From positions 1 through 28,040 of the IMG/VR virus record IMGVR_UViG_3300016476_001549: a stretch of DNA of 28,040 bases. The stretch is one strand, 5' to 3'. Each line of letters begins with the position of its first letter. Position 1 is the stretch's first letter. Below the pieces are notes generated by a model. It ran no database searches. It saw only the letters and a list, made by a program, of their open reading frames with translations, and was not told the origin of the DNA. Positions 2,914 through 26,376 of this stretch are shown here, one piece after another. The position numbers were made by a program, and so were the translations under genes. This DNA is from a virus (taxonomy: Duplodnaviria > Caudoviricetes).

Positions 2914-3018
2914 TTAAACTAATTCATCTATACCGTTTATACATAGCCCGACCATTCGAATGTGCTTTTTATTGCAAATCGTATTATTAATCGTTATATG
3001 TAAATTTAAACCGTACAT
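2914..3018 (-). CDS. Putative leader peptide 2, 34 aa, Asn/His/Thr/Lys/Ile-rich
   Basis: MYGLNLHITINNTICNKKHIRMVGLCINGIDELV*. It contains the antiterminator GTCGGGCTATGTATA. Confidence 0.8.
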   Translation of the reverse strand: MYGLNLHITINNTICNKKHIRMVGLCINGIDELV

Positions 3019-3029
3019 TTTGTTTTATC

Positions 3030-3101
3030 TTAAATAGTTAAAAAAATTGTTTTTCTTTTATTTATACGTACAAAAGTATAAAAAGTTACATAAAAAACAA
3101 A
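3030..3101 (-). promoter_or_regulatory. Composite promoter cassette for tRNA array 1
   Basis: TTTG-N19-TACTTTTG (host type) overlaps TGTAAC-N16-CGTAT (ECF-like), followed by TATTTAA. A near-identical copy lies at 16818-16889. Confidence 0.75.
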
Positions 3102-3146
3102 ACTTTTTTTTAAAAAAATGAAAATTATTTTTTAAAATGCTGATAA

Positions 3147-3560
3147 TTAAATAGTTATATTTTTAATTTTTATTATACCTAAATATTTTTTTCTCTCCTT
3201 ATTCAGCATATAAGGAGTTAGATCAAGAGTTTTTATAAATTCTGAAGATTCAATTTTATCATTATATATGCAAATATCTTCTAAATGCATGTTTTTATCA
3301 AACTCAATCTGATATCTTCCGCCGAGTGTGTTATCATCACTATTATAATATTCATTTTTTAAGAAAATATTTTTGTGTTTAGGATTTACCATTATTTTAT
3401 TAGATCCCCCACGTAATGTTTTCTTGTGTATAGATGCAGATACTTGATTTATTTTTGTCATTATACCACAATCAACTAAACCAGGTAGCTCGCTCACTCT
3501 AACCCACTCTTTATAATCCCACTCAACAATGGTGTTGCACTCTTCTTCTGTGAAAATCAT
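3147..3560 (-). CDS. Hypothetical protein
   Basis: 137-aa ORF with a 4-nt ATGA overlap with the upstream gene. Confidence 0.75.
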   Translation of the reverse strand: MIFTEEECNTIVEWDYKEWVRVSELPGLVDCGIMTKINQVSASIHKKTLRGGSNKIMVNPKHKNIFLKNEYYNSDDNTLGGRYQIEFDKNMHLEDICIYNDKIESSEFIKTLDLTPYMLNKERKKYLGIIKIKNITI

Positions 3561-8847: not shown

Positions 8848-8875
8848 TTCAAAGATAATAATATATTTTTAATTT

Positions 8876-8902
8876 ATACGAATTAAACTTAAAAAAGTTA
8901 CT
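8876..8902 (-). promoter_or_regulatory. ECF-sigma-like promoter
   Basis: AGTAAC-N16-CGTAT, one of six copies. Confidence 0.65.
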
Positions 8903-8921
8903 TCATAAAGTAAAAATTATT

Positions 8922-14138: not shown

Positions 14139-14396
14139 ATGAATCCATACAAAGAAAATATAAAAGGAAATATTAGCGAAAGAATATTCAAATCTTCTGT
14201 TGATAATTCAGAACTGGTTTGGCATAGAGACAAAGAAGATAGAATAGTTGAAGCTATTGGAAATACCAATTGGTTATTTCAAATGGATAATCAACTTCCA
14301 ATAAAACTTGAGGGTGAAATATTCATTCCAAAAAATACATTCCATAGAATCATAAAAGGTGATGGTGATTTGAAGGTTAAAGTTCAGAAACTTTAA
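14139..14396 (+). CDS. Small cupin-like protein
   Basis: ELVWHRDKEDR...IFIPKNTFHRIIKG; ATG at 14139. Confidence 0.7.
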   Translation: MNPYKENIKGNISERIFKSSVDNSELVWHRDKEDRIVEAIGNTNWLFQMDNQLPIKLEGEIFIPKNTFHRIIKGDGDLKVKVQKL

Positions 14397-14402
14397 TACT
14401 TG

Positions 14403-14474
14403 TACCGATGAAGGGAATCAAACCCTAAGCCTAGTTCTTATGAGGAACCCGTACTATCATTATACGACATCGGT
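14403..14474 (-). tRNA. trnM: tRNA-Met(CAU) (Ile2 not excluded)
   Basis: Acceptor ACCGATG/CATCGGT-A; GGTTC-CT CAT AA-GAACT; variant D and T loops. Confidence 0.8.
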
Positions 14475-14524
14475 AAATTTGTGGGACTTTCACCCACATT
14501 GTTACTTGTATGGATCTACATACT

Positions 14525-14601
14525 TGGAGTCGGTAAACGGGATCGAACCGTCTCTATTCCAGATTGGAAGTCTGGCGCACCACCATTTATGCGTTACCGA
14601 C
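14525..14601 (-). tRNA. trnG: tRNA-Gly(UCC), CCA encoded
   Basis: Acceptor GTCGGTA/TACCGAC-T-CCA; CCAGA-CT TCC AA-TCTGG. Confidence 0.92.
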
Positions 14602-14676
14602 ATTTTATTTGGCGAATAATCACGCCAATATTCTTAGAGTGAATATTTAATTAAATAAATAAAAAATAGATTTTTT

Positions 14677-14757
14677 TGGAGTATTAGAGGGATTTTACCC
14701 CTCTAATAGTTTAAGTTTGTAGTTTAACCTACTGAGCAATTAATTGCTAAACACTCC
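14677..14757 (-). ncRNA. tRNA-sized cloverleaf-like element with no assignable anticodon
   Basis: 8-bp stem GGAGTGTT/AATACTCC; hairpins AGCAA/TTGCT, GTAG/CTAC and AGAGGG GTAAAAT CCCTCT. Confidence 0.4.
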
Positions 14758-14814
14758 TTTTTTCGATTTACTTTCATTTTCAGTTTGTGGTATCGAATTT
14801 ACCGTTTCTGCTAG

Positions 14815-14888
14815 TGGAGAATAACGGAGTCGAACCGTTGACCCCCTGCGTGCAAGGCAGGTGCTCTAGCCAGCTGAGCTAATCCCCC
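14815..14888 (-). tRNA. trnA: tRNA-Ala(UGC), Bacteroidota host-like
   Basis: GGGGGATTAGCTCAGCTGGCTAGAGCACCTGCCTTGCACGCAGG...; G3:U70. Confidence 0.97.
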
Positions 14889-14964
14889 AAAAAACTTGTG
14901 CTTTATATTAAATATGTTATTTTTTTGTTTTTTGTTAAAAAATAGAAAATAAATATATTTTTTG

Positions 14965-15033
14965 TGGGGACAGATGGAATTGAACCACCAAGGCGATGTT
15001 TTACAGACACGACCAGACCCTGTCGATACCCCC
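14965..15033 (-). tRNA. trnY: Atypical short tRNA-Tyr(GUA)
   Basis: Acceptor GGGGGTA/TGTCCCC-A; GTGT-CT GTA AA-ACAT; T-arm GGTGG TTCAATT CCATC; tiny D-arm and no long variable arm. Confidence 0.7.
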
Positions 15034-15087
15034 AATTTAATTTTTACACCACACCAAAAAGTGACTAAAATTATAACAGTCTCTGTG

Positions 15088-15162
15088 TGGAAGTGATGGG
15101 AATTGAACCCACGACCTTCTACTTGCAAAGCAGGCGCACTGGCCAACACGTGCTACACCCCC
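15088..15162 (-). tRNA. trnA: tRNA-Ala(UGC), divergent
   Basis: Acceptor GGGGGTG/CACTTCC-A with G3:U70; loop TT TGC AA. Confidence 0.88.
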
Positions 15163-15174
15163 ATTTCATTATTT

Positions 15175-16050
15175 TTAAAGTTTTTTTAAATTATTTATTA
15201 TATCTATTATATATTTAACATCACCATACCTTATATCTACCTTTTTTTTAATATACTCCATCTTGCTTTTATCTAATTTCATACAATATGGGTTTTTTGG
15301 GTCTAAAAACAAATTGTAATCATTTAAATAAAAATCTGGATAATATTGTCTTTCTTTATTTTTTTTATCAATCCAAGTTAAACTTTCAGGTCTTATCCAT
15401 CTTATTGATTTAGAGTCTAATAATTCAGCAACTTTCAGTTCCCATGTTGACTCAAGAACAACTATGCTATTAATATATTTATTAAAATAATATATAGTCT
15501 TCCTTGATCCGTTGTTATAACTTCTATTTAAAGAACTTTTTGTTGCACATTCTTTAGAGCACGTTTTTCTGCTCCAACTAGGAAATTTATCAGTAAAAAA
15601 TTCTTTGTTACAATATTTACAATTATATTTGTAGTGTTTATTTATGTAATCATAATTACTCGACTTTATTAAACCAAAATTAGCATTATAACACTTTCCC
15701 GTCTTACTTCTGCTTGCAACCAATTCTCCATTTTTATACTTATTACTTAACGTTAAACCTATTTTCGTCTTTGTTTCATCTGACATTACCCTATTTTTAT
15801 TATTAAATTTTGCTGCACAAGATGAATTACAAAACTTTTTATTTAAGTTTATTGTATTTTTACAATTTTTACACTCATTATATTTTTTTATATTACCACC
15901 AAACTCTTTACTAAAGTCAATATCATATTTGTCACATAATGTTATTACTTTTTTAAAACCATTTCCATTCTTATGATAGCCTAATATGTTTAATATTTCT
16001 GTTTTTGTTTTTGCGTTTTTTATAATATTTAATAACTCTTCTCTACCCAT
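15175..16050 (-). CDS. Free-standing homing-type endonuclease with zinc fingers and a PD-(D/E)XK (TnsA-N-like) domain
   Basis: CKNC..FCNSSC and CKYC..TCSKEC; C-terminal ESTWE...YYPDFYL...LDPK; inserted between tRNAs. Confidence 0.8.
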   Translation of the reverse strand: MGREELLNIIKNAKTKTEILNILGYHKNGNGFKKVITLCDKYDIDFSKEFGGNIKKYNECKNCKNTINLNKKFCNSSCAAKFNNKNRVMSDETKTKIGLTLSNKYKNGELVASRSKTGKCYNANFGLIKSSNYDYINKHYKYNCKYCNKEFFTDKFPSWSRKTCSKECATKSSLNRSYNNGSRKTIYYFNKYINSIVVLESTWELKVAELLDSKSIRWIRPESLTWIDKKNKERQYYPDFYLNDYNLFLDPKNPYCMKLDKSKMEYIKKKVDIRYGDVKYIIDIINNLKKL

Positions 16051-16126
16051 ATTCTTTTAATATAAATAGAGAATAATTATTAAAAATCTAATTTAAGCAT
16101 TTCGAACTTAAATTACCTGTATTTAG

Positions 16127-16201
16127 TAGCACAGAAGAGACTCGAACTCTTATGATACCCACGTCCCAAACGTGGTGGCTTACCAATTAGCCCACTGCAC
16201 T
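16127..16201 (-). tRNA. trnP: tRNA-Pro(UGG)
   Basis: CCACG-TT TGG GA-CGTGG; T-arm AAGAG TTCGAGT CTCTT. Confidence 0.9.
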
Positions 16202-16205
16202 ATTT

Positions 16206-16280
16206 TGGCGGTGCATACGAGAATCGAACTCGTGTCTCCTGATAGACAGTCAAGAAGGATAACCACTACCCTAATGCACC
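16206..16280 (-). tRNA. trnD: tRNA-Asp(GUC), CCA encoded
   Basis: Acceptor GGTGCAT/ATGCACC-G-CCA; loop CT GTC TA. Confidence 0.93.
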
Positions 16281-16285
16281 AAATC

Positions 16286-16599
16286 TGACATACTCCACCT
16301 TCTCACGAGGTAGGAATCGAACCTACATCCCAGGACTCCAAAACGCAAATGCTATTCCTGTGCTTTCCCATTAAGCTACTCCCAATGTGTTTCATATGCC
16401 TTACTCAATCAATTACTCCCCCTTTCTACTTCTACATCCATACTAATTTCCTCCCCCTACTGAACCTGTCTAGACCCTTCCTCTAGTTCTCGGTTTTTAA
16501 AGCTTTTGCGTTCGTTATTCAGTAGTACTCAGAAACTTTCAAAATGCAGTTTCGTTAGAGCGCTTTCGTCAATCTTTCAACTTCATCACCAATATGTCA
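16286..16599 (-). ncRNA. ~315-nt structured RNA with an embedded tRNA-like domain, unknown family
   Basis: Closing helix 16591-16599/16286-16294; internal helix 16518-16525/16457-16464; D-arm, 20-nt-loop arm and T-arm at 16303-16385. Confidence 0.65.
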
Positions 16600-16615
16600 A
16601 ACAACGTTGTAAAAC

Positions 16616-16646
16616 AAAAAAGCTCGAATCTTTCGAAACGAGCTTT
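16616..16646 (-). terminator. Intrinsic terminator (attenuator 3) upstream of tRNA array 2
   Basis: Minus strand AAAGCTCGTTTC-GAAA-GATTCGAGCTTTTTT. Confidence 0.85.
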
Positions 16647-16676
16647 GTTATATCTTTTTTATTTAATTCTAATCTA

Positions 16677-16805
16677 CTATAAGACTTCATTAAAGTATAA
16701 CATACTCGCTTCTCCCAAGCTATAATAGGCAGGAGCATACGCATTCCCTAAGCCGTTCATCGGCATAGCGGGCATAATTGCTGTATATGTTAATACTTTT
16801 TTCAT
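16677..16805 (-). CDS. Putative leader peptide 3, 42 aa, Ala/Pro/Met/Gly/Tyr-rich
   Basis: MKKVLTYTAIMPAMPMNGLGNAYAPAYYSLGEASMLYFNEVL*. It contains the antiterminator GCGAGTATGTTATA. Confidence 0.8.
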   Translation of the reverse strand: MKKVLTYTAIMPAMPMNGLGNAYAPAYYSLGEASMLYFNEVL

Positions 16806-16817
16806 TTTCTTTTTATC

Positions 16818-16889
16818 TTAAATAGTTGTAAAATTTTGTTTTCTATATTTTATACGTACAAAAGTATAAAAAGTTACATAAAAAACAAA
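16818..16889 (-). promoter_or_regulatory. Composite promoter cassette for tRNA array 2 (repeat of 3030-3101)
   Basis: Same TTTG/TACTTTTG, TGTAAC-N16-CGTAT and TATTTAA elements. Confidence 0.75.
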
Positions 16890-16942
16890 ACTTTTTTTTA
16901 AAAAAATTAATAATATTTTATAAAATACTGAATAATAGACAT

Positions 16943-26309: not shown

Positions 26310-26327
26310 CTTATTATTTTTTTATTT

Positions 26328-26354
26328 ATACGAACAAAGTTATAAAAAGTTACA
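26328..26354 (-). promoter_or_regulatory. ECF-sigma-like promoter
   Basis: TGTAAC-N16-CGTAT. Confidence 0.7.
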
Positions 26355-26376
26355 ATACAAAAAAAATATTTGTAAC

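Follow-up and report, generated by a model that had tools for sequence, protein, structure and literature searches.

A predicted leader-peptide attenuator ahead of a phage tRNA array, and a family of similar codon-matched leaders

In a 28,040-nucleotide (nt) viral contig from IMG/VR (record IMGVR_UViG_3300016476_001549; hereafter the window), a 42-codon open reading frame (ORF) and a hairpin with a U run (16646-16612) precede the tRNA genes at 16385-14402 on the minus strand. On sequence evidence, we consider it likely that this leader and hairpin form a ribosome-mediated transcription attenuator of the trp/ilv type controlling these tRNA genes. An earlier reading of the same DNA (hereafter the original prediction) had proposed such an attenuator, and the proposal is supported by the tracking of array content by leaders, the frame specificity of the codon match, the complementarity of leaders to their own terminator arms, and the covariation of leader and terminator in homologues. 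The elements of this focal cassette are, in the direction of transcription:

16889-16859, minus strand: promoter-like site (TTTG, 19 nt, TAnnTTTG; motif scan), ending 53 nt before the leader ATG
16858-16806, minus strand: A/T-rich 5' untranslated leader, its presumed start placed by the promoter motif
16805-16677, minus strand: leader ORF, 42 codons, ATG to TAG
16799-16785, minus strand: region 1, codons 3-7, joined to 16705-16692 by two 7-bp helices (minimum-energy fold)
16787-16713, minus strand: candidate regulatory codon run, residues 7-31
16712-16692, minus strand: region 2, the putative antiterminator strand, pairing with either region 1 or region 3
16656-16635, minus strand: region 3, terminator 5' arm and preceding bases (predicted fold)
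16646-16612, minus strand: intrinsic terminator, 8-bp stem 16646-16639/16626-16619 plus U run (hairpin -9.4 kcal/mol)
16385-14402, minus strand: tRNA array 2 (ARAGORN, Rfam)

The array behind this leader contains the following genes:

16385-16302, minus strand: odd first tRNA with a 13-nt insert in the anticodon loop
16280-16206, minus strand: tRNA-Asp (ARAGORN default)
16201-16126, minus strand: tRNA-Pro (ARAGORN default)
16050-15175, minus strand: HNH-like ORF inside the array (PHROGs)
15162-15087, minus strand: tRNA-Ala (ARAGORN default)
15033-14964, minus strand: weak tRNA-Tyr (ARAGORN at relaxed threshold only; not called by Rfam)
14888-14814, minus strand: second tRNA-Ala (ARAGORN default)
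14601-14525, minus strand: tRNA-Gly (ARAGORN default)
14474-14402, minus strand: tRNA-Met (ARAGORN default)

The tRNAs listed in the original prediction stood for Asp, Pro, Ala, Tyr, Ala, Gly and Met, all but Tyr called by default ARAGORN; Tyr appeared at the relaxed threshold only, and the list had to be extended by the tRNA at 16385-16302. This first gene is read as Ala(AGC) by default ARAGORN and as Pro(UGG) with a 13-nt insert under the intron option, and it scores 42.9 bits in Rfam with an 18-nt loop region.

Residues 7-31 of the leader include 4 Tyr, 5 Ala, 3 Met, 3 Pro and 3 Gly, and our recount of these 18 of 25 residues agreed with the original one. From the composition of long ORFs in the examined contigs, 5.3 such residues would be expected (binomial p = 6e-8, for a stretch picked post hoc). 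Over the whole ORF, residues matching the default-called tRNA set (Ala, Asp, Gly, Met, Pro) number 16 of 41 against 9.4 expected (p = 0.015), and adding Tyr gives 21 of 41 against 11.1 (p = 9e-4). All four Ala codons, three Pro codons and three Gly codons are used, as had been noted before. Under strict wobble rules, array anticodons can read 13 of the 41 leader codons, against 7.3 expected.

Similar cassettes precede other tRNA genes of the window, an A+T-rich sequence whose 16-17 tRNA genes fall into two minus-strand regions (ARAGORN, Rfam):

3101-2859, minus strand: sister cassette 1, with promoter 3101-3071, 34-codon leader 3018-2914 and terminator 2885-2866 plus U run
778-583, minus strand: sister cassette 2, with promoter motif 778-747, 33-codon leader 739-638 and terminator 609-590 plus U run

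Sister cassette 1 precedes Asn, Asn, His, Thr, Thr, Lys, Lys and Ile tRNAs (2799-982), and 17 of its 33 residues fall in that set (10.2 expected). Sister cassette 2 stands 13 nt ahead of tRNA-Leu(UAA) (576-490), with Leu at 7 of its 32 residues (2.6 expected). The likeness between sister cassette 1 and the focal cassette ends at the ATG and returns just before the terminator, so the promoter and terminator flank are common to both and the ORF is distinct. All three ORF regions of the window fold better than shuffled sequences (z = -4.2, -4.0 and -3.4). The focal promoter lies within a 140-nt repeat upstream of the ATG that is 85% identical to 3018-3157, including an exact 43-nt core copy at 3061-3103. 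Copies of this promoter-like element are present at 3047-3107, 8859-8919, 16835-16895 and 26311-26371, two heading tRNA leaders and two heading protein-coding genes.

Related contigs were reached by two routes: starting from the neighbouring ATPase gene, we reached three viral contigs, all with one identical allele of the 42-codon leader, and a search with the promoter pattern led to four further contigs. For a survey of cassettes, the window and six related phage contigs were scanned by ARAGORN and a terminator finder, and each terminator no more than 500 nt upstream of a tRNA was assigned the longest ATG ORF ending no more than 120 nt from it. As the longest candidate ORF was used in every case, the frame was not picked for its fit. 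This yielded 15 terminator-like hairpins, 12 of which had an ATG ORF of 12-70 codons; two of the remaining three were inside tRNA sequences. After one identical duplicate was dropped (the cassette of contig G002, identical to that of contig G001), 11 cassettes were retained, 9 of them independent once two homologues of the focal leader were removed. Left out were the hairpins within tRNAs (2539-2496; G004 22366), an ORF-less hairpin (G004 48609) and terminators more than 500 nt from a tRNA, among them one at G005 9606, where an Arg-rich 29-codon ORF lies 765 nt from a tRNA-Arg.

To compare leaders with arrays, we scored, as z relative to background composition, how many residues of each leader belong to the amino-acid set of each array. 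Across the 9 independent cassettes, the mean z was 3.44 for a leader and its own array and -0.49 for other arrays, and among 362,880 permutations the true pairing alone reached the observed sum. Array limits had been set by hand in the first permutation test; reruns with fixed spans of 1,500, 2,500 and 4,000 nt left the outcome unchanged. That leaders of this kind should follow the content of their arrays was an expectation of the original prediction, and across homologous and paralogous leaders they do. Individual leaders illustrate the match: one has His, Gln or Pro at 9 of 10 consecutive residues (array Pro, Pro, His, Pro, His, Gln, Gln, Gln); another has Ser or Arg at 11 of 26 residues, with all four Arg codons AGR (array Ser, Arg, Arg); a third is rich in Lys and Tyr (array Lys, Lys, Lys, Tyr); and a fourth is rich in Asp, Glu, Val, Leu and Ala with one Trp, ahead of an array of exactly those tRNAs, Trp included.

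The match is also specific to the reading frame. In the frame defined by start and stop codons, 122 of 278 residues (0.44) fall in the array set, compared with 47 of 259 and 46 of 255 in the other frames (0.18 each). This bears on a switch independent of translation, in which the leader would itself bind tRNAs, as a T-box does, and thereby set the terminator. Such a switch would likewise use the terminator and antiterminator that are present here, and triplets complementary to the anticodons of the downstream tRNAs abound in the leader. However, direct tRNA binding does not predict a codon match limited to one frame, nor the frame-keeping indels and synonymous Pro and Ala changes described below, and up to seven amino acids are represented rather than one specifier. 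Moreover, Rfam at gathering thresholds returned tRNAs only over the window, no T-box or other family reaching its cut-off, and the T-box covariance model matched neither the window at gathering thresholds nor positions 14380-16700 at E <= 1. We therefore regard direct tRNA binding as very unlikely. In the same search of 14380-16700, a Thr_leader assignment was considered and rejected, as it scored 23.2 bits against a cut-off of 55 (E = 0.19) and aligned over the terminator only.

The leader RNA of the focal cassette is predicted to adopt mutually exclusive folds. In the full-length minimum-energy fold, 16799-16785 is paired with 16705-16692 and the terminator is formed. When the terminator 3' arm was removed, or when ORF nt 1-48 were masked, the fold flipped and 16712-16692 paired with 16656-16635 to give an antiterminator; masking nt 109-142, which mimics a ribosome at the stop codon, restored the terminator fold. 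The pairing of 16709-16696 with 16652-16638 that was proposed originally falls inside this predicted antiterminator (16712-16704/16643-16635 and 16702-16696/16652-16646). The duplex of region 2 with its own terminator 5' arm has a predicted energy of -12.1 kcal/mol, equalled by 2% of codon shuffles. The focal cassette combines four structural features of such attenuators: a short ORF, cognate codons, a terminator with no promoter motif after it and a predicted antiterminator that excludes the terminator.

A leader ORF adjoining a terminator is equally the layout of pyrBI, in which the logic is reversed: a ribosome close behind the polymerase would block the terminator, and fast decoding would turn the array on. 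Yet 30 nt separate the stop codon from the terminator stem, so that a ribosome at the stop would be unable to cover the stem, and a dedicated antiterminator strand within the leader would be needless for such a mechanism. These features make the pyrBI-like logic very improbable here.

Complementarity between leader and terminator extends across the family. On average, a leader and the 5' arm of its own terminator form a duplex of -11.4 kcal/mol, compared with -6.9 kcal/mol for foreign arms, and the true pairing was again the best of 362,880 permutations. In all cassettes, the complementary stretch lies in the 3' part of the leader ORF. For sister cassette 1, the duplex with its own arm reaches -12.5 kcal/mol, a value attained by 0.2% of shuffles.

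Homologues of the focal leader were found in three viral contigs, in contig G006 and at 8 metagenome loci; the last came from a scan of metagenomes with a conserved-core pattern that returned 94 loci, of which eight were true homologues by blastn. Six bases of region 1 are invariant in all eight homologues. A Pro-Ala-Met-Pro block is kept in all eight, and its Pro and Ala codons vary only at third positions. In the alignment of the eight, each of the 4 indels that fall within the shared ORF portion spans 3 nt. We take these third-position changes and 3-nt indels as signs that the leader is translated. The terminator stems of the homologues differ, and the pairing stretch of each leader shifts along with its own stem. 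Since two terminator types are one column out of register in the alignment, covariation was assessed by a swap test rather than by counting pairs; among six terminator types, only 4 of 720 permutations did at least as well as the true pairing. Contigs of two DNA runs that span the leader represent further alleles, and among the differences listed, all those within the ORF lie at codon positions of at least 27. Contigs from one RNA library covered 16214-16372 and 16342-16491, with 2 differences each, on the tRNA side only and with none over the leader or terminator.

Between the window and contig G001, 10 sense codons of the leader differ and 9 of these 10 changes alter the residue, two of the nine staying within the array set and two leaving it. 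The leader DNA is ~92% identical between the two, and the neighbouring protein is 76% identical. This pattern does not fit a conserved protein; it fits constraint at the RNA level together with constraint on the class of certain codons. The same comparison is relevant to the simplest alternative, a small phage gene and a terminator, both ordinary, with leaky read-through supplying the tRNAs, in which the codon match would be coincidence or a by-product of G+C-rich structure. Codons for Ala, Pro and Gly are indeed G+C-rich, like hairpin-forming RNA, the 42-residue product matched none of the PHROGs families, and the focal cassette taken alone gives only the p of 0.015 reported above. Nonetheless, a conserved-protein pattern is not what the G001 comparison shows, and the amino-acid sets of the sister leaders differ, each fitting its own array (Asn/His/Thr/Lys/Ile, Leu, Ser/Arg, His/Gln/Pro, Lys/Tyr and Asp/Glu/Val/Leu/Ala/Trp). 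We consider an ordinary gene and terminator a highly unlikely explanation.

As judged from their promoter motifs, the arrays depend on read-through past the leader terminator. The motif is present upstream of 10 of the 11 leaders, against a background expectation of 0.013 per 150 nt, and the eleventh is internal to an operon, where it follows a tRNA-Met that stands directly behind a promoter. We rejected a separate promoter downstream of the terminator: the motif was absent from all 11 intervals separating a terminator from its first tRNA, some measuring just 12-24 nt, and specifically from the 236 nt between the focal terminator and its first tRNA. The focal gap includes an extra stretch of ~170 nt (~16590-16390, minus strand) that is not in the relatives, where the gap is 69 nt; it matched no Rfam family and folds no better than shuffles (z = -0.79).

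We modelled ribosome stalling in three ways: an equilibrium fold with a 27-nt footprint, a fold of RNA cut at the terminator loop, and a sequential model. Pooled over 9 cassettes, matched codons were enriched at positions where a stall flips the fold, both in the equilibrium model (15 of 22 versus 107 of 265; p = 0.011, a weak signal) and in the sequential model (21 of 34 versus 101 of 253; p = 0.013); the model with RNA cut at the terminator loop did not discriminate (p = 0.26). In the sister cassettes, matched codons overlap region 1, so that they look more classical than the focal cassette.

Several observations weigh against the attenuator as we describe it. The three footprint models disagree on which stalls flip the focal switch: in the equilibrium model it flips only with the A site at residues 2-4 and 10-12, in the sequential model it flips at 1 of 42 positions, and 6 of the 11 cassettes never flip in the equilibrium model. 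Region 1 of the focal leader (codons 3-7) lies upstream of most of the candidate codons. Taken alone and over its whole ORF, the focal cassette is of only moderate significance (p = 0.015, or 9e-4 with the weak tRNA-Tyr counted), and the leader's 5 Tyr codons depend on that gene, called at the relaxed threshold only. The array encodes a tRNA-Asp and the leader has no Asp codon, an exception already pointed out in the original prediction; in addition, 3 of the 16 in-set leader codons are unreadable by array anticodons under strict wobble. Among the other cassettes, one ahead of tRNA-Glu in contig G005 matches its array weakly (3 of 23 residues, p = 0.26), and in 3 of 11 the own-arm duplex is no better than codon shuffles (fractions 0.21, 0.22 and 0.30). 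In the homologue L071, the leader forms a poor duplex with the arm of its own terminator (-4.9 kcal/mol). Finally, many tRNA blocks within arrays have no leader of their own: reading and a terminator scan of the sequence ahead of 21 inner tRNA genes (420 nt each, or 145 nt where a contig ended) revealed no further leader-terminator cassette, and most of these 21 genes follow ORFs resembling homing endonucleases.

The lack of a clean switch in simple stall-position models of the focal cassette, and the ~170-nt stretch between terminator and first tRNA that is in the window but not in the relatives, could also be accommodated if a translated, codon-matched leader acted otherwise, with a stalled ribosome changing how the tRNA precursor is processed or how stable it is, or working by way of Rho or some other factor. 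Against this stand the terminators of the cassettes, which are canonical hairpins with U runs, and the own-arm complementarity, which is specific and covarying as a choice between terminator and antiterminator predicts; nothing else considered here requires it. We judge such other modes of action improbable.

For the attenuator that we favour, we envisage the following sequence of events. Ribosomes would translate the leader, and only slow decoding of its Ala, Pro, Gly, Met and Tyr codons would let polymerase read on into the tRNA genes. A ribosome held early in the codon run would keep 16799-16785 unpaired, and the freed 16712-16692 would capture the terminator 5' arm so that transcription continues. 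With fast decoding, the upstream pairing and the terminator would form. As the products are tRNAs that read the test codons, the circuit would amount to negative feedback on tRNA supply, switched on when matching host tRNAs become scarce, or less well charged, during infection.

A cultured example is provided by Cellulophaga phage phi4:1 (NC_021788.1), which has 24 tRNAs, most of them in one array, and two cassettes at about 87065-87195 and 88025-88165. Its first cassette consists of the promoter motif, a 22-codon ORF and a terminator, followed by Pro, Glu, Gln, His, Leu, Leu and Arg tRNAs, and eleven consecutive residues of the ORF all belong to the set of its own array. The second consists of a second promoter copy, a short ORF within annotated gp075 and a terminator, followed by Ala, Lys, Ile, Gly, Met, Asp, Thr, Val, Arg, Met and Tyr tRNAs. 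In-set residues of the second ORF number 23 of 26 for its own array versus 4 of 26 for the other; for the 22-codon ORF, they number 11 of 21 versus 10 of 21. The annotation of gp075 as a coding sequence looks doubtful, as it spans the promoter motif and the leader ORF (87989-88108; 2490-2609 in locus L139). Equally doubtful is that of gp076 (90117-90218; L139 4618-4719), which lies over a sequence that by eye resembles tRNA-Ser with a long variable arm.

The Cellulophaga phages phi4:1 and phi17:2 are also the closest matches of the DNA ligase encoded in the window (53% identity over the full length). A search of a phage collection with the window DNA found no relative, matching only the tRNA-Asp of Aeromonas phages (7 records, 6-7% coverage). 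CheckV estimates the completeness of the window at 8%, which makes it a fragment of a very large phage. The promoter form TTTG, 18-21 nt, TAnnTTTG is one that we take to be the Bacteroidota -33/-7 type, so the host of this phage is likely a member of the Bacteroidota.

Other features of the tRNA regions were recorded in passing. ORFs resembling HNH or homing endonucleases are scattered in the arrays, by PHROGs matches: besides the one inside array 2, the window has one at 1953-1216 (minus strand), and contig G004 has several. In the minus-strand region of sister cassette 1, a 17-codon ORF with 8 Lys codons (2186-2133) lies just upstream of two tRNA-Lys genes (2088-1917); it has no canonical terminator after it and could be due to chance, given how A+T-rich the genome is. 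Between the Asn and His tRNAs (~2640-2460, minus strand), an apparent tRNA 3' half is followed by a 5' half, possibly a permuted or disrupted tRNA, called by neither ARAGORN nor Rfam. In the related contigs, a stretch of G004 upstream of a tRNA-Leu (~33180-33580, plus strand) looks by eye like a tmRNA, with a short frame ending in Ala-Leu-Ala-Ala. A tRNA with anticodon CUA in the related phage contig G007 (29979, plus strand), labelled Pyl by ARAGORN, is a possible amber suppressor, and close to it is a tRNA with a 4-base anticodon call. Finally, tRNAs of 95-96 nt in L003 (5898-5993), L004 (8256-8351), L005 (8149-8243) and G006 (19250) combine a long variable arm with the anticodon UGG (Pro), an unusual pairing for bacteria and phages.

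Leader-peptide attenuators are known from enterobacterial amino-acid operons, with ilvGMEDA and thr as multivalent cases and trp, his, leu and pheA as cases with a single amino acid. The phage cassettes resemble them in having a promoter-proximal short ORF, a run of regulatory codons, an intrinsic terminator and a segment with two pairing partners, and they resemble ilvGMEDA and thr in that several amino acids would be sensed together. They differ in that phage tRNA genes rather than biosynthetic enzymes would be controlled, that as many as six or seven amino acids are mirrored, and that the promoter has the Bacteroidota form; in sequence the two groups are unrelated, and most of the focal candidate codons lie downstream of region 1. 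In the pheM leader of pheST, a leader peptide with cognate codons likewise controls part of the translation apparatus, an aminoacyl-tRNA synthetase operon; there, one amino acid is sensed and the product is a protein, whereas the phage cassette yields tRNA and would thereby feed back directly on decoding speed. T-box riboswitches also sense tRNA status and choose between terminator and antiterminator, but they have no ORF and bind one tRNA through a specifier codon and the conserved T-box sequence, in contrast to the reading-frame-specific signal in the phages. By analogy, the mode of control is likely that of the multivalent attenuators, and the controlled genes, the tRNAs themselves, are likely new. 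Why phages carry tRNA genes has long been asked, and the answers proposed are codon compensation, the replenishing of a host pool that decays, and evasion of defences that cleave tRNAs. In full-text searches, which did not cover subscription journals, we found no published account of leader-peptide control of phage tRNA genes, and passages of PMC13602947 and PMC10264068 contain none.

We suggest tentatively, with slightly less than even confidence, that large Bacteroidota phages run their tRNA genes on demand, from isotype-sorted arrays placed behind codon-mirror leaders that gauge, through the translating ribosome, how well the matching codons are decoded and open a terminator when supply fails. 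If so, these phages would have a direct feedback on tRNA supply and a sensor of host tRNA loss during infection, for example through host shut-off or cleavage by anticodon nucleases. Leader-peptide attenuation would be extended from amino-acid metabolism to tRNA expression, and small "hypothetical" ORFs in phage tRNA regions would gain an annotation rule. The phage would be treating decoding speed as a signal, and the purpose of phage tRNAs would become testable.

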